Origin: Flaccisagitta enflata
Lineage: Eukaryota
Direction: 5' to 3'
DNA length: 64,000 nt
NCBI GenBank assembly: GCA_965153355.1
Contig: OZ231126.1
Location: 24,056,001-24,120,000, forward strand
Positions 8,858 through 37,087 of the stretch are shown here, one piece after another. The notes beneath the pieces were generated by a model that made no database searches, was not told the origin of the DNA, and was given only the letters and a program-made list of their open reading frames with translations. The position numbers and the translations under genes were made by a program. The stretch's first letter is position 1; the number at the start of each line of letters is the position of its first letter.

Positions 8858-9619
8858 CTCTGTGTTTTTCTATTTCTCATGTTTCTATTCCTGAATTTTT
8901 TTTCTTGCAGGTTTTTTCTTCCTCCTTTTTTTTCTTCCCTGAGGCGACTACATGAGGCGGAAATCTTTTCAGCCTTCACTCGCTCCAAATTTGGCTTCTC
9001 ACAGTGGGAGATGAAATAGACAAGGGCCACATGGCGATGGGGGAGGGGCTTCGGGGAGATGTAGGGGGAGATGAAAACAGGCAGAAATTCGCATGGTGAC
9101 GGGGGCGGGCTTCGGGGAGATGTAGGGGGAGATGAAAACAGGCATGAGGCCACGTGGTGAAGGGGGAGGGCTTGGTAGTGATGTAGTGAGAGATTGTGTT
9201 AGCGGGGGAGGATGCCGAGGGCAAGACTCCATAAGAGGGCGTAAGAGATACGAGTTACAGTCTGAAGAAAACTAAAGAAGAAACATGGTACTTGGGGTCA
9301 AATCCACACAAACCTGAGTATTGGCAAAAATGAGGAACTAAAACATATTGCACAGCTAGTCAAGCTACATAAAAAATGTCTATCTTTATCAATACTACAT
9401 CCATCGTATGCCACTGAATAACTCATAAGCCGAAAATTGAGAATTTTGTTTTTGTCGTCCATGACTCATCCATCCTTGCCCACGAAAAAAGAGTCCAAAG
9501 CGCAGGTGAAAAAGAAGATTAGAATAATTGGTCAAAAACTTTTTAAGAGCCAAACTCGCCTTGACTTCACCCTCTTTCTTGACTCACTTCCCTTGACAGC
9601 AAATGTCGGACGTATGCAG

Positions 9620-9676
<57 letters not shown>

Positions 9677-9678
<2 letters not shown>

Positions 9679-10600
9679 TTAGAAATGTATGTCTGTCAGT
9701 CTCTTAGGTGTGTGTGCCTTCTGTCTCTTTTGCGTGCTTTTGGCTTTTTTCTCTTTCTCTACTATTCGATGCCCGTGTCTTTTGTTTCTTGCCGTTTTTT
9801 ATATTGGACGCTAGATGGGTAACCATATGGTTGCGCCTTGATTTTGTGCCATTTGTTTTTACTACGTGGGCGGATGTGCGTAACTCGTCTTTCGTATCAT
9901 CCAATTTTTGGATTGATTGATTTTGTTTAATTACGGCGTCGCTTCTTAAAGTGATTGATTGATTTTTATGATCGTTTGAATGCGCCCTTGGAATTCACTA
10001 ATTTCAATAATCTCTCATCTTTTTATTGCAGATAAACTAATGAACGGACAATTAACGTTAATTTGACATCGACAGACTGTGGGTTGAAACCAACGAAAGT
10101 GGGCCTAAAAGTAAGTTTTATAGACGTGTTTCTGCTTTTATTAACGTTGTTTTTATCTTGTCTTCCGGTCTGTTCTTTTTGTCTTTTGCCCTTTTGCATT
10201 TTTATCGCCGGATTTTAGTATGGTTTTTATCGCTTGTCCGATCAGCTTGCTATAGGGATGATATGGATGAATTTAATGGGATGGGCCGGGGCAGGGGCAG
10301 GTATTATCAGGTGGCATGGGCTCTGAAGAAGATGAACATGTTGTCATGTGCTGTTTCTGTCCTTTATTGTGTCCTATCTCGATTTCATGTTATCTTTTGC
10401 GTTTGCTGATCACAATTAACGCCCACTTTCCCTTTCATTTTTCCCCCTCTCTTCAGTTGTTGAAATTTTTATGGAATAAACGAGACGATCGCCTTCCTAT
10501 TTTCCAATCGGCCAACTTTCTTTCACCACAAGTCGTCAGTCAGATAGACGCTCATAGACAGTGCCAGTTGAAACTCGTGGGCTTAATTTATATTTCAAAA
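9677..10600 (+). repeat. 5' LTR (~924 bp)
   Basis: TGTTAGAAAT...ATTTCAAAA (ATTTCAACA in copy 2), i.e. short terminal inverted repeats; AATAAA at 10475-10480; matches 21949-22863. Confidence 0.9.
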
Positions 10601-10655
10601 ATTTAAAAACGACTCGATTCTTTTCATCTTCGACCTCCGAAAGCGAAATTGGACA

Positions 10656-13600
10656 ATGGCAGCCGCGCGTAACGACGACACCGTCTCGACTGCTTCAACG
10701 TCATCTCGTGTATCTCACTTCGGTTTGAATCAGTGTCCGAGGTCGAATCGTTTGCGCGCAATGAGGAGCGACATCACTGCGGAAATGGAAGGATGCCGGC
10801 GCCTTTTGGACGCCGTTTCTACTTGCACCGAAGGAGCGAACTCGACGACGCCGCCTGTGAATCGGATGGCGCTCGACACGGCCTTCGGGACATGGTCTAC
10901 GACTTTATATCGTATGCAAGACAAATGGCGCTCGACTCGATGCCCGGCGACCCTCTTCGATTCGAGCGTCTTCTTTGCGTCGAATCCGGCGCGAGTGGGA
11001 CTCCATGCGTTTCTTTGATCGTGAAAACTATCCAGAGGTTTTTCCTTCCAACGCCGACATCGTGAACGCAGTGCATAATGACATTGGGAATCGCAAAAGG
11101 CCCGTCAATGAATTCTCATGGAATAGTCTCCCAACTGACACACACGCCGCCCGTGACAATGTTACCGCGCTCCGACTCCAAGATGCGGCGTCGTCGCCAA
11201 AAGACGGATCCAGTATCTACCACTTCGGTCCCGCGACATGGTGCGCAATCTCCAACTGGCGGCCAATTTTTAAATCTGCCGCCCGATCCAGAGAGAGATG
11301 CCGTCCAATCAATGGGTATCAGATTTGGTCTCGGAAATCGAACCTGCGCGTGCATCTCCGATGGAGCAAGCTGACGACATGCTTGCGGATCTCGACGACG
11401 CCGACGCTCTTGCAAGAGGCCGTGGGATCATCAACGGATTGACGCCGCAGGAGAGGGCGAGGCGGCGCAAGTCAACAGGAGTGCTGAGAGAGACAGATGG
11501 GGCAGGCAGTTGGAGGAGGAAATGCGACAAGGCCGTCGGCTGATTGACGATATGCAGCAGCAACAACGGGAGGAGGAGCAGCGACAGCAGCAGGAGCAAC
11601 AGCAGCAGCATCAATTGCAGATGCAGCAGCAGCAACTCCAACAGCAACGTCAACTCCACCGACCACAGGAGCAGCAGCAAACGACGGCTCAGCGGCAGCA
11701 GCAAGAGCTGTTGCAGCAGCAGCAGTTGCAGCAACTCCAACAATTTTGTCAACAAGATCCTGCAGCCGGCGCTCATCATCAACAACAACACGATCAACAG
11801 CAGCAACAACAGCAACAGCAACAACAACAAGAGCTGCGACAAACGGCAATGCAGCCGCACGAACAACAACAACAGCGGCAAAACGATGCAGGAGAAAATA
11901 CGCAACAGCAACAGCAGCAGCAACAGCAACCTTCCGCCGCAATCCCAGCGGTGGTAGTGGATCCTCCAGCGTCAAACAACCATCTTGTCGAAAGCATGAA
12001 CGTCAGTGAGGAGACAGAAGAAGAGAGACAGCAGCGCCTTGCAGATCAACGGCTGCGCATGATGGCTGAAGGTGAAGGTGGTGGTGCAGCAACAGCTCCA
12101 AAGGCGCCGATCGCGGTGCCATTGGGATTCCAACAGCAAGCTCATCACAAGAAGACAAAGAGTTATACGACAGAATGTGTAACTTTCGCCAGCAGCAGCA
12201 ACGAGATGAAGATAGAAGAGCGGGAATATTCAACAATGCGGCAGAAATGCAACGAAAGCACTGGAATAGCCTGAACGACGGCGGCATTGGTGAGGCTAGA
12301 GCAGCGTGATGTGAAGCTTAGGCAACTGTCTGAGCTGGAACAGCAGCAACCCCAGCATCCGCCAAAAGGCCGTCGATCTATCTTCAGAAACTTCAATTCG
12401 GGATTGTTCAGATTAGGAACACACAGCAGCGTCATGTGCAGTCAGTGGAAGCGTCCGTCGGCAGCGATGCAGCAGCAGCAGTGGGGGCAGCAGCAGCAGC
12501 AGCAAGGACAACGTCAGCGTCAACTGCAGCAGCAGAGGCGGAGCAGCAACAGCGTCTGACCAGCAACAACGCAGCTTCAACATCAACAGTGGCAGCAGCA
12601 GCGGCTTCAACAACAGCAACAGCATAAAGATCAGCATCATCAAGCCCCAGCAGCAACGATTCTCCCTACCGCACCGGAAGTGATCTTCGAGAAGCAGATT
12701 GGCTCTGCTAGAAGGGAGACTGGTTTTCCCCATCAAGAGGAAAAGGTCTTCAACACAGCCGGAAGCGGAGGTGATGCAACGGAAGCGATGCGCAGGAGGC
12801 AGAAGCAGGAGGCCGCTGACGCGAAGTTGGCACAACAGCTGCAAGATAAAGAGAGAAGAAAAGTCGCTCCCAAGAAGACAACGAATGGATTGCAGCCGAA
12901 GGTGCCGAAAGTAGCGCAAGCCTCTGTAGTAACGCCTCGCGGAAGTCATCAGCAGAATCACGTTTGCAGCAAGAAGTGGATAGTTTGAAGATGCAGATTC
13001 CTTCAGAGAGACTTTGACCTTGCCGCAGCGAGAGCAGAAAACAACGAAGAGGAACAACAGCGACAGTCGTCCGCCCAGATTTTGATGCTCCCCGATTCCA
13101 TCAAGATGATCGTCAACAACAAGTAAATCAGCAAGAGGAATAGGGTGGAGCGTTAAAACCACCAAAAAAGAGATCTCCGGTGTCGGGGTCAATACGCCTT
13201 CGTCCAACAACCCCAGCGTATCATCAAGTGGAGCATCATCAAGTAGCCCGTCAACCGGAAGTCCACGTTCAGATGCCCAACAATCCGGCGCTGGACAGGT
13301 TTTTGGAAAGAGCTTTTTTTTTTTGGAAAAAGAAGCGTACAATGATCTCATGCGAGCAAGGAGAGTGGCCTCAAAGCGTTGGAGAGAGCAAGACCTGAGA
13401 AGCCTCTGCAGGAGCTTTCATCCGCCTTTATGATGTGGAAGAGAAGTTTAAAAGATGCTGAGAAGCATGAAGGCTTGGCTAAAATGGACATCTTATTGGA
13501 ATTGCCTAAGTGGTTTGCTGGTCCGGCAAAAGAGATCATAGAAGCTGCGGCGATTGATGCAACTGAAGCGACAGCAAGAGGGAAGATTGGCAGCGCCTTC

Positions 13601-14330
13601 GCAAAAATGGGCGTAAATCTTTATAGCGAAGCGCTGCAACATTGCGGGCGCTGTTCCAGCAGCGAATCGTCGCGGAGGCAAAGATCAGTCGGCCGACCAT
13701 GCAAGGCATTTCAATTTGTCTGCAAGGTTGCAAAAGGCAAAGAAGATTGCGAGGACCTGTGGAGAAGTGCAACAATGCTATCGTGACGAGCTGCTGCAGG
13801 AGTTCTCAACAAGAGGGTCCCTCATCTTGCAGATAAATTCTGGGAAAAGCAACATGAAGCAGCCCTAAATGGACAATTGTTTTCATTCGACAACTTGGTC
13901 AATATGATCGAGACATGGGCGGTGATTCAGCGCAACCAAGGCGCAAGCTGCAAAACAGCATCAGTGGCAGCAGTCGCAACTACAGAGAAAGAAGCGCCAT
14001 CATCATATGAAGATGCTTTGACCAATGGCAAGCAAAAGGCGCAGTCGACGGACCGCTGCAACGTCTGCAGTGGAATGCATCAAACGGAAAACTGTCATCA
14101 ACTGTGGGAGTTGGAAGTGGACGCGAGAGTTCAAAAGATCATGTCTCGTCGTCTTTCCAGCCACTGTCTCACGCCAGGACACAACGCCAAAGGATGCGTG
14201 AACAGACCGACTTGCAAACCTGCAAGCGGCAGCGATTCTCCACGGGCGCACCTACAAGAAAGAAGAAAAGGGAGAGAAGAAAGAAGAAGCTAAGCAAGGA
14301 AATAAAGTACCGCTGGCTCCCTTCAAAAAG
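10656..14330 (+). pseudogene. gag: gag region, frameshifted: long N-terminal extension with poly-Q, capsid-like segment, triple zinc knuckle
   Basis: ATG 55 nt after the LTR; overlapping ORF fragments; CNVCSGMHQTENC ... SSHCLTPGHNAKGC ... TCK, completed in copy 2 as CFHCLAPGH and CQTCKKRH; the triple knuckle is a BEL/Pao hallmark. Confidence 0.8.
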
Positions 14331-14479
14331 TCAGAGGATGCGGCTGCAGCAGCACCAACAGCTCCGTCGACGGCGGAGGCAGCCAATCCAACGGAAATCA
14401 TCTCCTAACGCCACGGCGCGACTGGCGAGCGAAACGCGTCGCGGTCCGTCTCTTCGTCGGCGGCGTTGTCCGTCCGATG

Positions 14480-17301
14480 CGTTCCAGTGACTATATTAAA
14501 CAATTCTTCGGGTGCGCAGAGGAAGCGATATATGCTATGATAAACTCAGCGCTGGTCGCGACGTGATCAGTACCAGCGTCATTCGCAGTCTTCTGATTCC
14601 AACAAAAACAGTACAAATGACGGTGATTACTGTGGGAAGTCATGTTGTTGAGGATCGTTTCATCGCATCATTCACCATGCAATCGTTCGACGAGGAATAC
14701 GTCGTCGACGTCAACGACGCATTGGTGGGTGATTTGTTAACGAGTGAACGCGATATTCCTCCTTTTCTCCACGACCTATCTGACCAACCTCACATCGAAG
14801 GCATAAAATTTCCAGAAGCTGAAGGCGGTGTGATGATGATCATCGGAGCGATGCGGATACATGAAGTCGCTCAAGAAATCCCGTCGAGGGGGCCAGGATC
14901 TTTGACTTGCTTCAGATGTCTATTCGGTTGGACTGTATGTGGAAAAACGGGCAAGAGAGGACGAGATATTGCGTCGATCAACGCTATCGCGACCGACGGA
15001 TGATTCGCGTCCTCCGCGATAACATCGATATCCTCGACAATCGCGTCCTCAACAGCAACATCGACCGCATCTTCTACCATGACTTTGCATCGTCAATCGT
15101 CTCGCAAGAGGAGATGGGTGATTCCCTTGAAAATGTCAGAGCGTGCAAAACGTTAGAGGAAAAGATATATTTTTGCCCAATTGTGAAAAAATACTTTGCT
15201 CCCGTCACATGGAAATTTCATCATGAAAAAATCATGGAGATTCTGAGAAGAGTGAAATCACGACCGACTGCGATGAAGCGACTCGGTAACCAACGTTTTC
15301 GCTTCAAGCGTGATCCAGCCTTCAAAAGAAAGAGTCTTCCGTGAAATCGAAGTTTCACGAGGCGGGGTGGCGATTGAGATTGACGCGTCGGCGATAGCAG
15401 CGGCATTGAAGCCGCGCTGGTACTTGCCGCTTCATATTGTCGAATTGCGCGGAAAACGCGCGTATGTCACGATGCGCGTGCGGCGACCGGCAGGATCTCA
15501 CTCAATGATTTGCTCGTCGGAGGCCCAAATTTGATGAATAGCCTGATGGACATCCTCATGCGTTTTCGTCAGTGGAAAATCGCCTTTGTGTGACATAAAG
15601 GCGTTTTAAATCGCGTCCATCTGGCCACGCTGATTTATTCAGATTCTTTTGGTTCAAGGACCGCACTCTTCGAGAAGCAATTTTGAATCTGTTTTTATCA
15701 CACGTCTTCGGCAGCCAATCCAGCTCATTCGTCACATCTTTCACCGTCAGAAAGCATGCTGAAGTAATCCGGCCCAAATACCCCTACAACGTCTACGATC
15801 TTATTCGCTATGGTTTTTACGTCAGCGACGAAGTGGAGTGGGGATTGGTCGGCAAGCACTGCAACTAAAGGTGGATTCAGTGGCGGCGATGGCGGAAGGT
15901 GGGATGGATCTTGTGAAGTGGAAGAGCAATGCGCGGCAATTGATGGATGGAGATCCAAATGTGCCAATCCCCATTTCAGATAAGCAAGATGATGCGCCGA
16001 CGAAGGTGTTGGGCGTCTCATGGCTTCCGGCGGAAGACGTCTTTATTTTCATCTGCGACGAAGAATTCAAAACTCTTAGAGCAAAAACACCTCGTCAATT
16101 GGTCTCTATGCAAGCGAAACTTTACGATCCATTGGGTTTTTGGTCCAGCGCATACATCGGCAGACGTCATCTTCAACTCTGTCGTCCACAGGAAGTGGGA
16201 TGGGATTCGCCCTTGGAAGAAGCGTTGAGGAATCTTTCTTCAGCTATACTTCATCTTGGCCTCTTCTACAACAATATCGAGTGGACGCTGGTGGAATGGC
16301 GGCGTCGACAATAGCGACATTGCGGAAGTAACAATCGAGTTATTTTGCGATGCAGCTCCAAAAGGCGGATATGGAGCAGTTGCATATCGACGTCAAGTCC
16401 ATCAGAGATGGAGATGTTCACATTTCATTCATCGCCTCCAAATCTCACGTCATTCCTCTTAATCCAAACGTGCTTCTCATCACAACAGCGTTCCACGCGT
16501 CGAGATTGTATCCGCAGAAAAAGCAGTGCAGCTCAAACGCTTCGTCGGAAGGACCATCAACTTGGACAATCTTGTCGTCAGATTTTGGTCTGATTCTGAA
16601 TCTGCACTGAAGATGATTTACAATCCGGCAAAACCGAGGCCTGTATTCTTAGCCAATCTTCTCTCCAAGATCCATAGTGGGTCTGATCCTCAACAGTGGC
16701 GCTGGGTTGACTCGTCAAACAACCCGGCGGATCACTGTAGCAGAGGCATCCAGGCCCATGAAGCTGAAAAATGGCGTCAATTCCATCAAGGCCCTGCATT
16801 TTTGCGTCTTCCCGAAGATCAATGGCCCCAGACGAACATCGCGACGTGCCCTATTTCTGAGTCGCCGCTCTGTCGGCTGAGTGAAAAGAAACAAGTGGCT
16901 ATTGTGTCTTCTGCAGCCGCTTCTCGAGGAAAATGGATGCAGAAATTACGGATTATCGGCATGGTTCTCATCGCAGGCAAAAGGTGAAGCGTATCAAGGC
17001 GAAAACACGAGCAACAAAGATCTCCTTCCAAAGCCGGAAGTAGCGCAGGCGTGGAGGAAGGCGCGCAAACGGCTCGTCAAGTCAATGCAGCGGCAGCATT
17101 ATTCTGACGTCTTCGAACAATTGGAATTGGGAAAAGTTTTCAAGCCAGAAAGCCGTCGTGACTTTATCATAAAGAACAAGGAGATGCGGAAGTTGAACCC
17201 TTTCGTCGACGACGGCATCCTTCGCGTCGGCAGTCGATTGGAATGCCGACATCTCTCACGGCGCTAAATTTCCCTTCATCCTGCCGCCAAAAGACGAGAA
17301 T
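14480..17301 (+). pseudogene. pol: pol: aspartic protease, reverse transcriptase, RNase H and linker, frameshifted
   Basis: VPVTI..IYAMINS/AGRDVIS (degenerate protease site); WYLPLHIV, SLNDLLVGGPNL, FRFFW, HVFGSQSSSF, FYVSD (RT, YVDD-like); KVLGVSW, LYDPLGF, LFCDAA..GYGAVAY, FWSDS, NPADHCSRG (Pao RNase H region). Confidence 0.9.
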
Positions 17302-18423
17302 GTGAAATCATTAATTCGCCATTATCATCATAATGATTTTCACGCGGGTGCAAAGCATACATTGTGCCAATTACGCCAATTTGTGTGGATTACAAAAGGT
17401 CTTCAGGCCGTCAAGAGCGTCGTCAACACGTGCTTTAGATGCCAGAAGAACTTTAAAAAGAACGCAAATCAGCAAATGGCCAATCTTCCATCAAATCGCG
17501 TCAATCAGGCGCCTGTCTTTGCAGAGACTGGATTGGACGTCATGGGGCATTTCATGGTAAAAATGAACGGGCGTGCTGATCACAAGGTGTGGATCGCAGT
17601 GTTCACCTGTTTCGTGTCACGCGCCGTCCATGTGGAATTGCTCTTCAACATGTCAGCCGATGCGATGGTAAATGCAATCATCCGCTTTGCAGCAAGGCGC
17701 CCAGGAATCCGCCGTTTCACCTCAGATTGTGGAACGAATCTAGTCGGCGCCAACAATATCCTCAAGAAGGAAATGGAAGCTTGGAACCGCTCGTCAACTC
17801 CTGAATTGCAGCGGCGCGGCCTTCGGTGGGATTTTATCACGCCGAGAACACCCCACTATGGAGGGGTGTGGGAGAGAATCGTCGCTCTCTTTAAGCGCCA
17901 TCTTGCTTCCATCTCAACTGGCGCCATCCTCCACGTCGACGCCTTCAACACTGCCGTCGTCGAAGTTGAAGGAATTCTCAATCGCCGTCCTCTAACAGCG
18001 CTCAGCGATGATCCAAATGACTCTGAGGCCCTTACACCGAATCATATCCTCAATCCATCAACATCCGGCCATGCCCCTCTGGATCTGGTGCAACAAGGCG
18101 TCAATTCTGACGCCGACTCCGCGAAGATTCAATGGAGGCGTGCGCAATCGCGTGTGGATGCATTTTGGAAATCGTGGAGGGTCGAATATTTATCGCTTCT
18201 TCATGCGCGAAGCAAATGGTCGAGATCTGAGAAAGACTTTGCGGTGGATGACATGGTCATCGTCATGGACGAAACGCTGCCTCGTCACAATTGGAGCTTA
18301 GGACGTGTCATGGGCGTCGAGGGTTCGTCAGCCCATGTCCGGAGGGCTCACATCCGGCGCCAAGATGGAAAGATCGTGACGAAAGACCGCACGAAGCTCG
18401 TGCGGCTGGAATTGGACTCATAA
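17302..18423 (+). CDS. Integrase, open C-terminal part of the polyprotein (HHCC zinc finger, DDE core, DUF5641-like tail)
   Basis: H..H ... CFRC; GLDVMG, TSDCGTNL, GGVWERIV; LNRRPL; FWKSWRVEYL..W..LPRHNWSLGRV; 373 aa uninterrupted. The listed start is not a true initiation codon. Confidence 0.92.
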   Translation: MKSLIRHYHHNDFHAGAKHTLCQLRQFVWITKGLQAVKSVVNTCFRCQKNFKKNANQQMANLPSNRVNQAPVFAETGLDVMGHFMVKMNGRADHKVWIAVFTCFVSRAVHVELLFNMSADAMVNAIIRFAARRPGIRRFTSDCGTNLVGANNILKKEMEAWNRSSTPELQRRGLRWDFITPRTPHYGGVWERIVALFKRHLASISTGAILHVDAFNTAVVEVEGILNRRPLTALSDDPNDSEALTPNHILNPSTSGHAPLDLVQQGVNSDADSAKIQWRRAQSRVDAFWKSWRVEYLSLLHARSKWSRSEKDFAVDDMVIVMDETLPRHNWSLGRVMGVEGSSAHVRRAHIRRQDGKIVTKDRTKLVRLELDS

Positions 18424-18774
18424 AAAACGCTAAGTTTTGAGAGAGAGAGAAAAAGGCGCATGGGCCTGTCCATTAGTAACTATAGATATGAGTGATTGAT
18501 ACTCTGACTTGTTATATTTACAAAGAGTTGTTATTATTCATATTTGGTTCTGATTATCCATGCTTTCATCTTTCCTCTTGTCAATTATGTTGTCCATTTC
18601 CATTTACACATCAAAACACTGATTCATTCGCTCTGTCTATATGTACATATTATTGTGCCAAATCCGTTCTTACCTTTATCAGTTCTTCAACACGAACATT
18701 TCAAAGCTTCCGCTGACGACGTCATTCCATCTACGAAGTCAGTTTGCATCTTGAAGTCGCTCGTCGGAGTCAAG

Positions 18775-20894
18775 ATGTCCCGTCAGCAGCGTCTCGAGGC
18801 TGAAGCCGACGTGTCGACGTCGTACGGATCCTTGGATCTTCATCGACTCTTCAACGACGGCTCGACTCGAGAGGGATCTGCATCCACGACGTCGTTCGGG
18901 GCGGAGGAGGAGGCTGTCGCGCTGGCAGCCTTCAATGGCGACCTTCGTTCCGTCGTCGACGCAAAAATGGCGAATAAAAAGCGTCAACAAGATGATGCGT
19001 TGGTAAATCGTCAACAGCCATCCAACGCCGTTGATCCCGCGTCGCTTCCTCCATTGGTGGTCATCAAAGATGAGGTTCGAGCGGATTGCGATCAATCGGC
19101 CGCCGACGGACTTATCCACCACTTCCGCGGCGGCGTCATCATCATCGGATTTGCCCCCATCGCCTCAATTCTGCCTTGATTTCGGTCGCCCAGCGTCTCG
19201 TGATCAAGCGTCTGCAGCTGCACGTCAACGCAGCGGGGGCGAAGAGAGAGAGAGATTGGTCAATGATGGAGCAAGAGTGGAGGAGGAGGGGATGGAAATA
19301 GAGGAGGAGGTGTTGGTGAATGGGGAGGTGGTGGAGAAAGGCATTGACCCGGAAGTGGACACTGCGACGCCGGAAGAGAAACACCAACGGATGCAGGCGC
19401 GTTGGTGGTATCGTATCATCAGTCCGGACGTCGAAGTATCTCTCCTCTTCAAAGAGTTTGAAAAACTTTCAGTATGCTGCAACAAACAAACTCTCATGCG
19501 CTCATCGGCTAATCAAACAGAGCTGGGCTCGGAGACTCTGGAGCGCAAAATCCAAAGCAACAAAAAGAAGGAGGGAGCATGATAAGGAGGTTCGTCGCAT
19601 GGTCCAAGCGACGAAGAGGAAGAATGCGGCTCCGAAGCCTCCTGGTGCAACTGCTGTCGACGCTTCCGCAACTCCACCAGCGGTATTCGTGCTCGACGCA
19701 GCCGCAGCTACATCAGCGGCAATTCACTCTACAGCATCAGGAAGTCGTCAATCGCGCCCTGGATTGGTTCATCCCCCAAATCAGCAGCAACAGGGTCCTC
19801 GTGACGTCACTCCCTCACAACAATCGAAGAGATCACGTCGGGGAAAGACTCCACAAACGCGCAATGTGCAGAGTCAACAAAAAGGGCCAAATTCCAAAAG
19901 CAAAGGCCCCCTTCAAGCGCCTCCAGGCGCGCCCCCTGCAGCAGTAACGCCCAAAGGCCAAGGAGAAGCTTCAAGTGGTTCGTCGACGGCAACGTTGGCA
20001 GCAACCCAGAAGCTGGATCAGGCGCCTGGGGCAGCGGCAGCAAAGGGGAAGAAGACCAAGAGAGCTGGGAAAAAGCACAAAGCAGCAACCAAGGGAGGTT
20101 CTACTTGCGGTGCTTCGGCGTCCGCTGTTAAACCTCAAGTCTCTGGTCAGCAGACGGGAGCGTCTTCCTTTCACTCGCAGCCATCAAAAGCCGCGGTAGG
20201 AAGCGAACTAGTTGGCGGTGCTTCAGCATCTGTTAAAGCTGGTGTAGCGCCTCGTCAGCAAACCGAGTCTGCCCAAGGTCTGCAGCAAGTGCAGAACCCG
20301 CCTCCCCCGTCGGATCCAGCCTTTGATCCTGCGCATGGACACCACATCGCCGAGTCATTGCTACGAGAAGCCTCTTTACTGACCTCAAATGCTCCATTGG
20401 GGGTGGTGAAGAATTTAGCATCAAGGCTTCCAAAAGACTTCTTCGCGTCGCTTCCGCCGCGTCAACGAGTTGAAGCGGCTCGTCAAGTCTTGGACGAGAG
20501 GATTCGTCGCAACATCCAAAAGGAGAGAGACGATGCTCGTCGAGCAGCAATGGCTGCGGACAATGAGGTGGTCAAAGGCAATAAGCGAGTCGTGGAACTG
20601 GAGAAGCAGCTTGAAAAGGAGAAGCAGGCCTGTGCGATGAAGGCTAAGAAGAAAGAGGAGGCGGTGGAACGCGCAAAGGCGGCTATGGCCGTCGACTTTA
20701 AAACTGCGTCCGCTGTACGTCCAAAATTTCGACTGGCGCCGAATTGCGATGCAGCATCTCCACCTCCTGCGTCTTCTCCAGCAGAAAAAGTCGGTCAGCA
20801 GATCCCGTCGCAAAAAGACGCTCCCAAGCCTGGGAATAAGAAAAGAAAAATCGAACCAGGCCTTGGAAAAATCAGACCGCCAGCTAAACGCTGA
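18775..20894 (+). CDS. Extra ORF downstream of integrase (three overlapping frames; basic, A/P/Q/K-rich, coiled-coil-like, not env-like)
   Basis: ATG in CAAGATG context at 18775; overlapping ORFs 18544-19179, 19031-19582 and 19320-20894 (524 aa); GC-rich coding-like composition between AT-rich spacers; no signal peptide or TM segment seen after this ATG; KKRK motif near the end. Confidence 0.6.
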
Positions 20895-21933
20895 TTGGTG
20901 CCACGCCCAGTTGCCTTTCAATTTAACTACCAATTTGCAACATGGCGTGGAGAGCGCCGCCATTCGCTGAGGATCGTATTCCACCGTGCATCCTCATCCC
21001 ATCGATGGACAGGCCGCCCAAGTCGGGCGCTACCCGGGGCGTGGGAATGACGTCCGCCCCGGGGCCTGGCAAAAAACGCCCGCGTAAGTATCATGGTTTG
21101 GGAAGGGTTGAGGTTGAGTTTTTGTTGTAAATTTGAATCTGTGTACGATAAGAACTTTACTAATCAATCTGCCCCTGTTCTTTCTCTTTCTTTTCCTTCC
21201 CTTCGGGGAGGATTTACTCTCAGGCAGCTGCACCACCTGCGCCTTTCGATGCGGTCGCCGTCGACGACATCATTCATCGCCTTTCGCCCACGAGTTGACG
21301 AGATGTTGGAGCCGGAATGACCCGCTCGTCTCTGTAATGGAGAAGGCGCAGGTGATGTGGTCGTTCCATGATGCTTACTAATTTTTCTTTCATTTAACAG
21401 ATTCGTTTTTATTATATAGTTAGTAATTTATTTAATTTTGTCTTGTTTTGTTTGGTTCTTTGGAACATGTACATTTTTGTTGTGTTTGTTTTAGACATGG
21501 TCTTTTTAGTCATTATTACGAATACTTTAGTATGACATGTTTTAGTAGTATGCCCCCACTTATCTTTTCCCACTCTCAAGTCAAATCCCAGGCTTGGAGT
21601 GCTCCTAGGCCCGTTCCCCTTTCCCCCCCCCCTTCCCTTTAACTTTTTTCAGAACGGGCGCCTCAACCTCCTCGTCGCCGCCTCGTCTCCATCCGCGTCG
21701 TCATTGATCGTTGCAAATTTGCTGGTGGTGGATCCTTTCCGGACGGGAATCATCATTCGTGCAGTCGTCGATCTGTTGATAGTTAGGGTGGGGATGTAAG
21801 AGGCGGTGGACGGGGGGGAGGGGCGGGGGTTGTGTCTATGTAAATTTTTTTTTAAGGAAGGTAGTATCGGTTTTTTAGTAGGGTTTCCCCGACTGGAAAC
21901 TAGGTGTCGGATTTTTGAAATTCGTGAAATTCC

Positions 21934-21948
21934 AAAAATGGGGCAGAA
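21934..21948 (+). other. Polypurine tract
   Basis: AAAAATGGGGCAGAA immediately before the 3' LTR; equivalent at 27384-27398 in copy 2. Confidence 0.7.
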
Positions 21949-22983
<1,035 letters not shown>

Positions 22984-23499
22984 GAAATACAGATAGGCAG
23001 GCTCAGTGTCAAACAGACCGACAGGCACCAATGGACAGACAGACACGCAGGCAGACGGAATGTCACGGGTCGAAGATCGGAGGTCAAAGCCGCCATGGCG
23101 AAGGCGTCTCAGAAGTCTCGATGCACGTCTTCTGCCTCTTGAGAGGGCGAAGCAGAAACGAATTCAAGATGGAGGGAGGGAAAGGAGGTGAGGGGGGAAA
23201 GAGGGATAAGGGGCGGGGGGGATAATGCCACGGTTACGGTAGGGGGTAAGGCAGAGACATAAATCAGAGGAAGGGCGCCCTACAAAATAGGTGAAACGGG
23301 AAGAGAATTTTTGGATTAATTGCGATGGTAGGTCGATGTGTCTAAAACAGTGAATCAAGGCGACTGAGAATGAAATCTCCGTCTTTGCAAAATTTTTCTT
23401 TTTACATTTTTTGAATTAGCGGCAAGACATTAGGAGGGCATCAGCTGATAGTTGTTTCAAGTCACTGCAGCGACAATCAGAAAGCGCTTGAGAAGTACA

Positions 23500-26390: not shown

Positions 26391-26460
26391 TCTTCGGCTG
26401 CCATTGTCCAATTTCGCTTTCGGAGGTCGAAGATGAAAAGAATCGAGTCGTTTTTTAAAT

Positions 26461-27383
26461 TGTTGAAATATAAATTACGCCCACGAGTTTCAACTGGCAC
26501 TGTCTATGAGCGTCTATCTGACTGACGACTTGTGGTGAAAGAAAGTTGGCCGATTGGAAAATAGGAAGGCGATCGTCTCGTTTATTCCATAAAAATTTCA
26601 ACAACTGAAGAGAGGGGGGAAAAATGAAAGGGAAAGTGGGCGTTAATTTTGATCAGCAAACGCAAAAGATAACATGAAATCGAGACAGAACACAATAAAG
26701 GACAGAAACAGCACATGACTTAACATGTTCATCTTCTTAGAACCCATGCCCTGATAATACCTGCCTATACCAGGCCTATCCCATTGAATTCATCCATATC
26801 ATCACAATAGAAAGCTGATCGGGCAGCGATAAAAACCATACTAAAATCAGTCGATAAAAATGCAAAAGGGCAAAAGACAAAAATAACAGACTAGGAAAGA
26901 CAAGATAAAAACAACGTTAATAAAAGCAAAACAGCGTCTATAAAACTTACTTTTAGGCCCACTTTCGTTGGTTTCAACCCACAGTCTGTCGATGTCAAAT
27001 TAACGTTAATTGTCCGTTCATAAGTTCATCTACTACCCACGTAAAAAAGATGAATTGATGAAGTAGCAAATTCAGGGCACATTTAATCAATCACGAAAAA
27101 TCAATCAATCACTTTAGGAAGCAATGCCGCAAATAAATAAATCAATCAATCAAAAATTGGATGATAAGACAGTTACGTATGTATGCCTACGTAATAAAGC
27201 AAATGAGCACAAAATACAGGCATAACCATGGTTGCTGTTACCCATCTAGCGCGTTCAATATAAAAAATGGCGAAACAAAAAGACGCTGGCATTGAATGAT
27301 AGAGAAAGAAGAAAAACCAAAAGCACTCAGAAGAAACAAAAAGCACACATACTTAATAAACGGACGGACGTACATTTCTAACA
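26461..27383 (-). repeat. Single LTR of copy 2
   Basis: TGTTAGAAAT...ATTTCAACA on the minus strand; 923 bp; preceded by the PPT. Confidence 0.9.
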
Positions 27384-28432
27384 TTCTGCCCAATTTTTGG
27401 GAACTCACGAATTTCAAAATCGACATCTAGTTTCAGTCATGGAAACCTACTAAAAACCGATACTACCTTCCTTAAAAAAATTTACAGATACAGCCCCCGC
27501 CCCTCCCCCCCCCGTCCACAACCTCTTCCGTCCCCACCCTAACTATCAACAGATCGACGACTGCACGAAAGATGATTCCCGTCCGGAAAGGATCCATCAT
27601 CAGCAAATTTTCGGCGATCCCGATGACGCGGATAGAGACGAGGCGGCGGCGAGAAGGTTGAGGCACCCGTTCTGAAAAAGTTGAGGAAGGGGGGGAAAGA
27701 ATGAGCCTGAGCACTCAAGCCTGGGATTTGACTTGAGAGTGGAAAATATGAGTAGGGCATACTGCTAAAACATGTCATGCAATGTTCGTAATAATGACTA
27801 AAGATACAATGTCTAAAACAAACACAACAAATGTACATGTTCCAAAGAAACAAACACAACAAGAAAAAATTAAATAAATTACTAACTATATATAAAAACG
27901 AATCTGTCAAGTAAAAGAAAAAATTAATAAGCATCATGGAGCAATCACATCACCTGCTCCTACTCCATTACAGAGACGAGCGGGTCATTCCGGGTTCCAA
28001 CATCTCGTCGACTCGTGGGCGAAAGGCGATGAATGATGTCGTCGACAGCGACCGCATCGAAAGGCGCAGGTGGTGCAGATGTCTGACAGTGAATCCTCCC
28101 CGGAGGGCTGAAGAAGTCGGGCAGAAGCCATGCAGATGGGTTTCGCGTCGTCAGCGGAAGCTTTGAAATATTCGTTAACGAGCAATGTGAAAATGAAACG
28201 GATTTGGCACAATCGTATGTACATGTAGACGAAGCGGAATGAATCGTGTTTTTGATGTATTATTAAATGAATGATAACATAATTGACAAGAGGACAATTA
28301 AGCATGGATAATCAGAACCAAATATGAATAATAACAACTCTTTGTAAATATAACAAGTCAGAGTTTCAATCACTCATATCTATAGTTAAATGGACAATAT
28401 GCGCCTTTCTCTCTCTCTCAAAACCATGATTT

Positions 28433-30290
28433 TTATGAATCCAATCCCAGCCGCAGAAGCTTTATGCGGTCTTTTGTCGCGATCTCTTCATCTTGGCGTC
28501 GAGAAACAGCCCTCCGGACATGGGCTGATGATCCCTCGACACCCATGACGCGTCCTAAACTCCAATTGTGACGAGGCAGCGTTGCGTCCATGACGACGAC
28601 CATGTTGTCGCACAGAGTCTCTCTCGGATCACCGACCATTGCTTGACGTGAAGAAGCGGCAAATAATGCGACCCTCCACGATTTCCAAAACGCATCCACA
28701 CGCGATTGCGCGCGCCTCCATTGAATCTTCGCTGAGTCGGCGTCAGAGTTGTTGACTTGTTGCGCCAGGTCCAGAGAGGCGTTGCCGGATATTGATGGAT
28801 TGAGGACGTGATTCGGTGTGAGGGCCTCATAATCATTGAATCATCACTGAGCTGTCAGAGGACGACAGTTGAGAATTCCTTCAACATCGACGACAGCAGT
28901 GTTGAAGGCATCGACGTGAAGGATGGCGCCAATAGAGATAGAAGCAAAATGGCGCTTGAAGAGACCGATGACTAGATCAGTTCTAGTCTAAAGTAGATCG
29001 GTTGAATTCTGCGATCCGCGCCTTATGATCTGCAAGCCCGATCGTCTTTACTATGACATGCCCCATGGCATCCAATCCGGTCTCTGCTAAGTCAGGTGCA
29101 GGATTGACGCGATTTGATGGAAGATTAACCGTTAGCTGATTTACGTTCTTTTTAAAGTTCTTCTGGCATCTAAAGCGCGTGTTGACGGCGCTCTTGACAG
29201 CCTGAAGACCTTCTATAATCCACACAGATTGGCGTAGTTGGCACAATGCATGCTTTGCATCCGCGTGAAAATCGTTATGATGATAATGGCGAGTTAATGA
29301 TTTCACATTCGCGTCTCTTGGCGAAGGATGAAGAAATTTAGCGTCATGTCGCGATGTCGACATTCTCCAATCGGCTGCCGACCGAGATGCGTCGTCGCCG
29401 GCGGGTTCAACGCGCCTCCTTATTCTTGATGATAAGTCCACGGCGGCTTCACCGCAAAGTTTTCCCAACTCAATTGTTCAGCAATCAGATAATGTTGCCA
29501 GCTGCATTGACTTAATGAGCTGTTTGCGCGCCTCCTCCAAGACGTCTTGCGTCTTCCGGTTTAGTAAGAGGATTCTTTGCTGCAATTGGGCAAAGGTATG
29601 TCTTTTCCTCTAACATTTTGCACGCTCTGATGTTTTCAAGAGAATAGCCCATCTCCTCTTGCGAGGCGATTGGTGATGCAAAGTCATGGTAGAAGATGCG
29701 GTCAATGTTTATCATTGAAGGTGCGGTGTCGAGGATGCGGTCGATGCTGTCTTCGTTAAGGATCACGATCATCGTTGCGTGGCGATGATAAGACGCAAAA
29801 TCTCGCCCCCTCTTCCCCGTTTTCCACACACAGTCCAACCGAACAAGCATCTGAAGCAAGTCAAGGATCCTGAAGGCCCCCGGCGGATTTCTTGAGCGAC
29901 GGCGGCGTCCGCATGCGCCGCGACAATCATCATCACCGCCTTCTCTGCTTCTAGGCACTATTTCTCTGATGTGAGGCTGGTCGGATAGTGCATGAGAAAA
30001 GGAGGAATATCCATTCACTCGTTAACAAATCACCCACCAGCGCGTCGTTGATATGGCGACATATTCCTCGTCGACCGATTGCATGGTGAATGATGCGATG
30101 AAACGATCCTCAACAGCATGACTTCCCACAGTAATCACCGTCATTTGCACTGTTTTTGCGGAATCAGAAGACTGCGAATAACACTTTAATTTGCTGATTA
30201 CGTCATGATCAGCTGTATAAAGGTCGATCTGCATATATCGTCTCTGTGCACCGAAGAATTGTTTATAATAGTCACTGGAACAATAGGACG
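28433..30290 (-). pseudogene. pol: Protease region fused to integrase remnants (RT/RNase H and part of the DDE core missing)
   Basis: ..EEKTYLCPI|AAKNPLTKPE.. junction at ~29583; HYHHNDFH..RFRCQK; GLDAMG; FWKSWRV; LPRHNWSLGRV..RLGLDS*. Confidence 0.85.
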
Positions 30291-30355
30291 GACGCGTAAA
30301 TCCGAATGAAAAAGGCGGTTGCGGCGTTGCCCGTCGCCAGCCAGTCGCCGTGGCG

Positions 30356-33300
30356 TTAGGAGAAGTGCTTCCGTTGGATAGGCTGCCTCCCGGCGGCGTC
30401 GTCGCAGGGCGTTAGTGCTGCTGCAGCCGCATCCTCTGACTTTTGAAGGTAAGCGGTACTATTTCCCTGCTTATTTTCTCCTTTCTTCTCTTCCTTTTCT
30501 TCTTTCTTGCAGGTGCGCCCGTAGAGAATAGTCGCGTGCCGCTTCTTGCAGGTCTGGCAAGTTGGTCTGTTCGCGCCCCCTTGGGCGTTGTGTCCTGGCG
30601 CGAGGCAGTGGAAACAAGGACGTCGAGACATGATCTTCTGAACTCTCGCGTCCACTTCCAACTCCAACAACTGATGACACTCTTCCGTTTGATGCATTCC
30701 ACTGCAGACGTTGCAGCGGTCCGTCGACTGCACTTTTTTTGCTTTGCCATTGGTCGAAGCATCCTCATATGATGATGGCGCCTCTTTTTCTGTTGTTGCG
30801 ACTGCTGCCATGATAACATTTTGCGGCTTGCGCCTTTGTTGCGCTGAATCACCGCCCATGTCTCAATCATATCAGAACCAAATTATCGAATGAAAATAAT
30901 TGTCCATTTTGGGCAGCTTCATGTTGCTTTTCCCAGAATTTATCTGCAAGATGAGGGACCCTCTTAATGAGATCTCCTGCAGCAGCTCGTCACGATAACA
31001 GTGCCCTCTCCTGCAAGTCCTATATCTTCTTTGCTGCAACCTTGCACCGAACAAGTTGAAATGCCTTGCATAGTCGGCCGACTGGATCTTAGCCTCGGCA
31101 GCGATTTCGTTGAACAGCGCCGCAATGTTGCGGCGCCTTGCCATCAAAGGCAACGTCCATTTTCGCGGCGTCGTCAATCTCTCCTCTTGCTGTAAAACTG
31201 GTGCATCAAGCGTCGCAGTTTCAATGATCTCCTTTGCCGGACCAACTGACCACTTAAGCAATTCCAATAAGATGTCCATTTGCGTCAGAAGCCTTCATGC
31301 TTTTCAGCATCTTTGAACTTCTCTTCCATCATGAAATGGGTGGATAGAAAGCTCCTGCAGAGGCTTATCACGTCTTGCTCTCTCCAACACTTTGAGGCCA
31401 ACCTCCCTTGCTCGCATATAATCGTTGTACGCCGCCCTCTCCAAGAACATGTCCAGAGCCGGATTGTTGGGCATCTGTACATGAACTTCAGGTTGACGAG
31501 CTACTTGATGAAGCTCCACCTGATGATACGCTGGGTCTTGTTGGGTAAGGGCGTAGTGTTTTCCGACTTTGACCGGAGATCTCTTTTTGGTAGTTTTCAC
31601 ACTCCACCCAACCTCTTCTTGCTGATTCATTTGTTGTTGTCGATCATCTCGATGGAATCGGGGAGCATCAAAATCTTGGCGGGCGTACTGTGCTAGCTGT
31701 TGTTGTTCTTCTTTTCGTTGTTTTTCTTCTTCTCTCGCTGCGGCAAGTCAAGTCTCTCTGCTGAATCTGCATCCTCAATATCCACTTCTTATAGCGTTGA
31801 TTCTGCTAGATGACTTCCGCTTGTTGTTGCTAGAGCGCTGCGCTTCTTGCAGCGCCTTTGGCTGCAATCCACTCATTGTCTTCTTTGGAGACTTTTCTTC
31901 TCTCTCCTTATCCTGCAGCTGCTGTGCCAACTTCGCGTCAGCGCCCACCTGCCTCTGCCTCCTGCGCATCCAACCTCATTGCATCACCCCTCCGCTTCGG
32001 CTGTGTTGAACCTTTTCTCTTGTGAGAAGTCAGTCCCTTCTAGCAGAACCAATCTGCTTCTCAGAGATCACCTCCAGTGCGGTAGGGAGAATGGTTGCCG
32101 CTGGGGTTTGATGATGCTGATACTGATGCTGTTGCAGTTGTTGAAACCGTTGCTGCTGCCACTGTTGATGTTGAAGCTGCTGCTGCTGGTCAGGATGCTG
32201 TTGCTGCTCATTCTGCTGCTGCCGGTGTTGCTGTCGCTGTCCTTGCTGCTGCTGCTGCTCCACCTGTTGCTGCTGCTGCATCGGCTGCTTAACGGACGTT
32301 TCCACTGGCTGCACATGACGTTGCTGTAAGTTCAAATTGAAAATAGATCGACGGTCCTTTGATGGATGCTGCGGCTGCTGCTTGTCCAGCTCAAGACAGT
32401 TATCCTAAACACATCTCGCTGCTCTAAGCTCAATGCACGCCACGTCGTTCAGAGCTATTCAATGCCTTGGTTGCATCTCTGCATGCTGAATACTCTGTCT
32501 CCTATCTTCATCTACAGCTGTGCTGCTGGCGAAAATTACACATTCGTAAGTATAACTCTGTCTTCTTGCTTGATGAAGGAAGCCAGCTCTGTTGAATCCC
32601 AATAGCACCATGATCGGCGCCTTTGGGGCTGTTGCTGCACCACCACCTTCACCTTCAGCCATCATGCGCAGTCGTTGTTCTGCAAGGCGTTGCTGTCTCG
32701 CTTCTTCTGTCTCCTCACTAACATTCATGCTTTCGACAGGATGATCATTTGACGCTGGAGGGTCCACTACCACCGCTGGGATGGCGGCGGGAAGGTTGCT
32801 ATTGTTGCTACGGTGCTGTGCATACGTTCTCCTGCATCATTTTGCCGCTGTTATTGTTGTTCTTGCGGCTGCGTTGCTGGTTGGCGTTTTTGCAGCTCTT
32901 GTTGTTGTTGCTGTTGTTGCTGAAACAGCAAATCTTGTTGGTACTGTTTTTGCTGCTGCTGTTGTTGCTGCTGTTGATCGTTTTGTTGCTGTTGTTGATC
33001 CACATGTTGTGGCATACGCTGCAGATCTGATATTTGATCTTGCTGCGAAATTGTTGGAAGTTATTGCAACTGCTGCTGCAACATCTGCTGCTGCCCGTTG
33101 AGCCACATCGTTGCTGCTGCTCTGTGAGTCGGGTCAGAGTTGACATTGCTATTTAGGTTATTTGCTGCTGCATCTTACGGTGATGCTGCTGCTGTTGCTC
33201 CTGTTGCTGTCGCTGCTCCTCCCCTCCCGTTATTGCTACTGCATATCGTTAATCAACTGACGGCCTTGTCGCATTTCCTCCTCCAGCTGTCTATCCCATC

Positions 33301-33639
33301 TGTCTCTCTCCTGCCTCTCCTGTTGAGAAACCAAGCGTCGCCTCGCCCTCTCCTGCGGCGTTAATCCGTTGATGACCCCACGACCTCTTGCGAGAGCATC
33401 GGCGTCGTCGAGATCCGCAAGCATGTCGTCAGCTTGCTCCATCGGAGACGCGCGCGCGCAGGTTCGATTTCCGAGACCAGATCTGGGCCCACTGATTGGC
33501 AGCATCTCACTCTTTGGATGGCGACGGAGTGCAGAATTGACCGCCAATTTGAGTGCGCACCATGTCGAGGGCCGGAAGTGGCAAATATTAGGATCCGTCG
33601 GGGTTTGGCGACGACGTTCGCATCCTTGGGGTTGGAGCG
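30356..33639 (-). pseudogene. gag: 5'-truncated, frameshifted gag of copy 2
   Basis: Zinc knuckles in ORF 30356-30859; MDILLELLKW; poly-Q; ASPMEQADDMLADLDDADALARGRG as in copy 1. Confidence 0.85.

Positions 33640-37087
<3,448 letters not shown>

Follow-up and report, generated by a model that had tools for sequence, protein, structure and literature searches.

A third, non-envelope gene under purifying selection in a BEL/Pao lineage, and its possible role in RNA export

The element and its third gene

Our analysis of a 64,000-nucleotide stretch of Flaccisagitta enflata contig OZ231126.1 (the window; features lie on its plus strand unless noted) revealed a 13.2-kb LTR element at 9677–22863, with LTRs of 916 nt that are 99.5% identical to each other. 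The 5' LTR (9677–10592, TG...TA) is followed by a Gln-rich gag region with CCHC knuckles (10656–14421), heavily broken in this copy and ending in a TGA stop in others, and by a pol region (14422–18423) for protease, RT, Peptidase_A17 and an integrase with DUF5641, broken here save for the integrase tail. A third gene, ORF3 (18775–20894), of ~703 codons in open copies and split over three frames in the window copy, precedes a polypurine tract (21934–21948), which by alignment is common to three families, and the 3' LTR (21949–22863). A Pfam search of pol returned Peptidase_A17, DUF5641 and integrase domains in the order PR-RT-RH-IN typical of BEL/Pao, and because of these domains the element, as judged by its pol, belongs to BEL/Pao (Belpaoviridae). 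LTR size (916 nt, against 0.2–1.2 kb for the group), target-site duplication and polypurine tract all conform to this assignment; among ten copies with both flanks read, seven have a 5-bp duplication, and one each has a 6-bp duplication, a microsatellite or none.

According to the published profile of Belpaoviridae, a tRNA primer site of 18 nt is present, gag and pol are continuous or overlap, length is 4.2–10 kb and third genes are env-like (PMC8742986). These are typical traits of the group, whose definition rests on pol. The element resembles this profile in its LTRs, CCHC gag, PR-RT-RH-IN pol, Peptidase_A17, DUF5641, polypurine tract and the presence of a third gene after pol, but differs in being 13.2 kb long, in having a third gene that is not env-like, in the absence of a tRNA primer site, in a stop codon that splits gag and pol, and in LTRs that mostly end in TA (PMC8742986). 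The 3' LTR ends sampled (L070–L089) read ATA in 17 of 20 cases and ACA in three, compared with the usual CA.

An earlier note on this DNA had drawn attention to the region behind pol, and the motifs it listed lie where it placed them. The integrase stop (18421–18423) gives way to an AT-rich spacer that contains the acceptor-like TTCTTACCTTTATCAG with its AG at 18681–18682 and has a GC fraction of 0.34, compared with 0.55 in ORF3; the ATG at 18775, the GTAAGT at 21084, the TACTAAT at 21158 and the AGs at 21209 and 21222 follow. The three overlapping frames described for the gene are present in the window, but they result from copy-specific breaks near 19070, 19560 and 20840 that are absent from open copies. 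Since 16 of the 30 copies fetched have a single frame from the same ATG (15 of 701–710 codons, one of 783), these breaks are not programmed frameshifts, a mechanism that we rule out. Single-copy indels within ORF3 are non-triplet in 45 of 51 cases across the 30 copies, and some of the frame breaks may be assembly errors. Of the KKRK motifs that had been noted, the C-terminal one is itself a product of the break near 20840; open copies end otherwise, in a basic, Trp-containing sequence.

The ORF3 protein is net basic and has 2–6 Cys. Kyte-Doolittle averages over 19-residue windows peak at 0.76–1.32 in all five proteins profiled, indicating no hydrophobic segment, and the proposed absence of a signal peptide and transmembrane helix is thus upheld as far as hydropathy tells. 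The AlphaFold model is mostly disordered (459 of 703 residues with pLDDT < 50; whole-model pLDDT 50), with helices at residues ~201–286 and 528–644. Three conserved segments stand out. The N-block (19346–19625) combines the motif QARW(W/Y/F)Y, an NES-like hydrophobic motif (19445–19474), a CC pair and an Arg-rich helix (19547–19625); a linker motif, VHPP...TP..KR (19755–19841), is NLS-like and includes a proline-directed Thr; and the C-block (20322–20702) is predicted to form a pair of short helices together with a long one of 80 residues, at a pLDDT of ~90. Six proteins from five lineages all contain the aromatic motif, a class-1a NES pattern, two Cys and the Arg-rich helix in this order, and in the linker of all six a Thr-Pro is followed by a basic cluster. 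The NES pattern, scored against the class-1a consensus, adjoins the Arg-rich helix at the same place in 6/6 proteins, but it is a loose one, occurring somewhere in 20–38% of shuffled N-blocks. An acidic patch adjoining the basic helix, NLS-like motifs and the long helix recur in all lineages compared. The conserved basic motifs suggest a nuclear location, and we consider ORF3 to be probably a nuclear regulator.

What might such a protein be related to? Sequence searches of Pfam and PDB with ORF3 found nothing at E values of 0.001 or below, nor did Foldseek structure searches, BFVD included, give a fold match at that limit with a model of pLDDT 50. A match to a known env or to another transposon ORF, a prospect raised by the earlier note, therefore failed to appear in Pfam, PDB, Foldseek and BFVD. 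The best PHROGs hit (E 0.005, to a holin) is not credible, an Atlas search returned generic coiled coils only (best score 0.86), and VIA-align of the long helix found generic helices and coiled coils only, with Z under 6 (best 5.7). Of 598 pattern matches in JGI metagenome contigs, 0 were confirmed, and a comparison of ORF3 with the element's own Gag revealed no similarity (best E 1.3).

Inheritance and constraint of ORF3

ORF3 is a gene of many copies. In a DNA search of the genome, the best 40 of 844 candidates were scored and 40/40 matched at 94–100%; in a protein search, the best 150 of 2180 candidates were scored and all matched; and the family numbers at least 149 copies. The possibility of a one-off insertion, which the earlier note had left standing, is excluded by these copies, 30 of which were fetched. 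Independent metagenome assemblies encode full-length ORF3 proteins that are 85–97% identical, in clusters of 87, 81, 11 and 4 members.

Variants common to at least two of the 30 copies comprise 51 synonymous and 37 non-synonymous changes, corresponding to a pN/pS of 0.24 in the ORF3 frame, compared with 2.06 and 0.88 in the two alternative frames and 0.02 in the integrase tail. An overlapping +1 frame of 208 codons, present in most copies, was rejected as a gene, being without selection (pN/pS 2.06). Pairwise dN/dS within family A, computed for frames open over at least 450 codons and with one reference copy common to all pairs, is 0.10–0.42 in 36 of 38 pairs, with 0.59 and 0.81 in the remaining two and ~0.2 overall; the overall value is well below the 1 that the earlier note had named as counter-evidence. 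Four family-A pairs split by region give 0.06–0.15 for the N-block, and constraint is highest at residues 1–60, ~190–285 and ~520–645. ORF3 is almost certainly a real, selected gene.

A second family (B) also carries the gene. In family B, the integrase is 81–82% identical to that of family A, and an ORF3 of 40–45% identity occupies the same place. The integrase lies upstream of family-B ORF3 in seven of eight stretches and is lost in the eighth; in a further set it accompanies ORF3 in 8/12 stretches, the other four being truncated or cut short. The synonymous distance dS between A and B is 1.46–1.66 for ORF3 and 1.48–1.60 for integrase, an agreement that is as expected for joint inheritance, with both values near saturation. 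Whether ORF3 travels with its BEL family, a check that the earlier note had suggested, can thus be answered from the integrase found upstream in both families and from the matching dS: on this reading of the alignments, ORF3 is old and travels with pol.

More distant relatives extend the series. Type C, with an ORF3 of 38% identity, is represented by a 5'-truncated genomic copy with a related LTR downstream, and two additional ORF3 types were found as metagenome proteins only. Every relative encountered was either a metagenome protein without a name or a copy of the element. For the ORF3 lineage P0009/P0055, the nearest genomic match is 53% identical (among the best 105 of 2653 candidates scored), and given this lack of a close match the lineage probably represents ORF3 in other hosts or populations. 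At the level of sequence, these comparisons establish ORF3 as a third, protein-coding, non-env gene that is inherited with pol and is under purifying selection in a BEL/Pao lineage.

Candidate splice, priming and readthrough signals

The most direct trace of splicing is a copy that has lost an intron. Locus L007 lacks exactly the 283 nt corresponding to 18400–18682, a segment that begins with GT, ends at the predicted AG and shows no microhomology at its borders; among 89 genomic matches to the exon start, 88 have the AG and L007 is the sole non-G. The simplest reading is that L007 was reverse-transcribed from spliced RNA, and the precise GT..AG loss implies that the acceptor AG at 18681–18682 is probably used. 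The donor in L007 sits within the end of integrase and need not be the main donor. This acceptor is kept in 29 of 30 copies and the ATG context in 30/30, family B has a corresponding acceptor in the same position, and no copy has an ATG between the acceptor region and the ORF3 start. On the DNA evidence there is a strong indication, and we regard it as likely, that ORF3 is translated from a spliced RNA that uses the acceptor at 18682; such splicing would take out the five upstream ATGs inside the intron. Four other deletions (35–53 nt) were examined as intron losses and rejected, as they are not GT..AG.

A second set of signals begins behind ORF3. The predicted 3' intron (21084–21223) comprises the GTAAGT donor, the TACTAAT at 21158 and the AG at 21222–21223; conservation further points to a 49-nt mini-intron (21352–21400), to an acceptor made of a pyrimidine tract and the AG at 21651–21652 (21632–21652), and to an exon within the 3' LTR (22303–22381, AG 22301, GTAAGT 22382), with another AG at 22726. 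The candidate 3' sites were listed from the window before the distant families were fetched, with the exception of donor 21352, which was noticed afterwards. All 30 copies retain donor 21084, the branch motif and AG 21222, which exceeds chance, and two distant families retain them as well; AG 21209, the other downstream acceptor proposed in the earlier note, is not kept in those families. Across families A, B and C, which have 48% three-way DNA identity, conservation extends without exception to the GTs at 21084 and 22382 and to the AGs at 21222, 21399, 21651 and 22301, compared with 34/142 of all GTs and 22/73 of all AGs; AG 22726 is conserved too, shifted by one base. Donor 21084 lies after the stop codon and therefore opens a series of 3' non-coding introns without extending the protein; a coding role of the 3' exons was discarded, as their reading frames differ between families in the A/B/C alignment.

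Contigs of RNA libraries X1, X5 and X6, three marine plankton or metagenome libraries, have flat coverage over the element, cross the predicted introns unspliced and contain no splice joints; these contigs may be DNA, and such contigs cannot reveal rare splice forms. Genome searches for two of the 3' junctions found no copies with 3' intron loss. The proposal of a spliced gene is accordingly supported at the DNA level only, by precise intron loss in one copy and by conserved sites; RNA contigs showed no joint.

Between the stop codon of ORF3 and the 3' donor lies a highly conserved, non-coding element (20895–21083) with a predicted hairpin at 20901–20950. These 190 nt have 65% three-way identity, placing them among the most conserved non-coding stretches, and pairs in the hairpin change on both sides between families (T-A/C-G, A-T/G-C), a covariation that reflects two or three lineages only. 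The folding energy of the post-stop element is not better than that of its shuffles (z -1.82 and -0.09), and an Rfam search gave two sub-threshold matches only.

Priming looks unusual as well. No TGG, as expected of a tRNA primer site, occurs within the first 50 nt past the 5' LTR at any of 14 junctions, which were taken from the window and from L032–L040, L105–L111 and L117, leaving out the 4 of 18 stretches that do not have the required TTTC after the LTR. Instead, the first 11–12 nt past the LTR pair with an LTR-internal motif 123–147 nt upstream at 12 of the 14 junctions, in three families, whereas only 0–11 of 300 shuffles attain an LTR complement of that length; at one position, family A has a G-U pair where family B has A-U. 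In the window, the candidate self-primer (10455–10465) lies behind a pyrimidine tract and CAG that could be an initiator or splice acceptor, and the primer-site position (10593–10603) differs by one base from the LTR complement that other copies have there. Self-priming of the Tf1 type is likely on this pattern. Gag and pol share one frame, split in both families by one TGA with CT(G/T) behind it (window ~14420); the TGA is present in all eight copies chosen for that layout (L033, L036, L037, L042, L104, L110, L112 and L113), and readthrough is probable. Unusual primers have reportedly been seen in some Cer elements, and a gag-pol stop is said to exist in Kamikaze. Tf1 and Tj1 are fission-yeast elements of another superfamily. 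Like them, the present element has a primer site complementary to an LTR-internal stretch, and like Tj1 a gag stop codon (PMC4600332).

Possible roles of ORF3

What could a probably nuclear protein contribute to such an element? Given that predicted introns in the 3' region and LTR are conserved and that the element is copied from unspliced RNA, it must export unspliced RNA. We tentatively propose, giving the idea nearly even chances, that ORF3 is a convergent regulator of the Rev/CERV kind, acting in RNA export or splicing control. In this model, basic signals would carry ORF3 into the nucleus, where the Arg-rich helix would bind element RNA, with the structured element past the ORF3 stop as candidate site; the long helix would multimerise the protein, the NES-like motif would couple unspliced RNA to export, and the conserved Thr-Pro site could possibly act as a switch. 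Pfam, PDB and fold searches revealed no similarity to any export protein represented there.

Precedents for such a role differ from ORF3 in instructive ways. Cer1 is a gypsy-type element. CERV is described as a nuclear protein that is made from a spliced Cer1 mRNA and required for export of the genomic RNA (PMC10309623). ORF3 resembles CERV, which was once taken for env, in being an additional protein encoded by an LTR element of an invertebrate, probably made from spliced RNA, with a candidate NLS and NES, structured blocks on flexible linkers and a Ser/Thr-Pro site (PMC10309623). CERV, in contrast, has exons in common with gag and globular M and G domains, and export has been shown for it, whereas for ORF3 we infer it (PMC10309623). 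ORF3 also occupies a separate frame, is all-helical and disordered, and is unrelated to its own Gag. HTLV Rex and HERV-K Rec have the same features as HIV Rev, and all three are of 100–200 aa; ORF3, at ~700 aa, is far larger, has its NES-like motif ahead of the basic helix and shows no sequence or fold match to them. The features in question, which find counterparts in ORF3 and its element, are an Arg-rich helix, an NES-like motif, a multimerisation helix and, as a candidate in the present case, structured RNA towards the 3' end (PMC10309623).

Third genes in the same position are known from roo, Tas, Cer7 and mosquito BEL elements, but these env-like ORFs, as described in PMC13524379 and PMC554778, differ from ORF3, which lacks a cysteine-rich ectodomain and, judged by hydropathy, both a signal peptide and a transmembrane helix. 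Another parallel is offered by the ORF3s of bdelloid LTR elements, non-env third genes that include coiled-coil types and typically have spliced messages; they belong to other lineages, however, and include several enzymes that can be recognised as such (GDSL, DEDDy), whereas the ORF3 described here has no recognisable domain (PMC5408684). Relatives may exist among the many BEL/Pao sequences in the supplements of PMC3118150. A search of mainly openly accessible literature found no report of a non-env BEL/Pao ORF3 or of a self-priming BEL/Pao element, and CERV was the one case of an invertebrate LTR element exporting unspliced RNA.

ORF3 could instead act on DNA. A transcriptional activator or anti-silencing factor, modelled on Tat/Tas or VANC, would place the basic helix on LTR DNA or chromatin, activate through the acidic patch and dimerise through the long helix. 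The acidic patch beside the basic helix, the NLS-like motifs and the long helix found in all lineages compared agree with such a role, as does the growth of the family to at least 149 copies, but no DNA-binding fold was found, the long helix matches generic coiled coils alone (Z 5.7; Atlas 0.86), and the conserved introns and RNA element would be left unexplained; we consider this role unlikely, while giving it real weight. It is also conceivable, though rather unlikely, that ORF3 is a cofactor of the particle or RNP. As a disordered and basic scaffold it would form condensates together with Gag and RNA, act as a chaperone of primer annealing, or escort the integration complex to the nucleus. 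The 459 disordered residues (pLDDT < 50) of 703, the net basic charge, the low complexity of gag (15% Gln) and the unusual-looking priming would suit a cofactor. ORF3 is nevertheless unlike its own Gag (best E 1.3), and the tightest constraint falls on a short hydrophobic-plus-basic module and not on the linker.

A captured multi-exon host gene, an option already named in the earlier note, would make ORF3 a coding exon with downstream introns carried along for a host-like function. The exon-intron-like units in series after ORF3 invite this thought, and LTR elements have been documented to capture ORFs (PMC5408684). On the other hand, the relatives encountered are either metagenome proteins without a name or copies of the element, the most distant genomic ORF3 copy also has an LTR downstream, and no host source or paralogue emerged among the candidates scored in own-genome searches (the best 150 of 2180 in one and the best 105 of 2653 in the other), where a weak paralogue may have escaped; a host origin is improbable. 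Still harder to credit is the idea of ORF3 as a divergent env, or as a protein for transfer between cells. Its position between pol and the 3' LTR, reached via a splice acceptor, is that of env, but ORF3 is basic and disordered, has no hydrophobic stretch and 2–6 Cys, and yielded no Pfam, PDB-sequence or BFVD match, making this role extremely improbable.

Returning to a Rev/CERV-like regulator, we speculate, with considerable doubt, that the element may represent a complex BEL/Pao lineage with an independently evolved, retrovirus-like kit: a Rev-like export protein with an RNA response element, multiple splicing of a 3' region that extends into the LTR, gag-pol readthrough, and self-priming of the Tf1 type in place of a tRNA primer. 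Of the LTR groups, BEL/Pao has been studied least, and its profile calls replication poorly understood and names only env-like genes as third genes and only tRNAs as primers (PMC8742986). An orphan third gene together with conserved introns and an RNA element offers a concrete test of unspliced-RNA export in an invertebrate LTR element. An export role, if true, would be a further independent origin of Rev-like control, and the self-priming signature, if true, would extend that mechanism to another superfamily.

Several observations concern individual copies and their surroundings. The gag-pol of the window copy (10656–18423) is full of small indels despite the 99.5% LTR identity, attributable to either assembly error or mobilisation in trans. 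This copy is inserted in a (GA)n tract within another repeat (9401–9676 and 22864–23200), an empty form of which lies inverted in the same window (34580–35157). A second, older copy on the minus strand (26395–33639), 80–88% identical, is without ORF3 (18721–21199) and much of pol, and has leader sequence after its LTR, as in a tandem array; its deletion matched itself alone among the best 40 scored of 414 candidates, and an amplified ORF3-less subfamily was discarded. A short copy (L003, L041, L080) consists of LTR, integrase tail, open ORF3 and LTR, with gag and most of pol absent, and is bordered by a 5-bp duplication.
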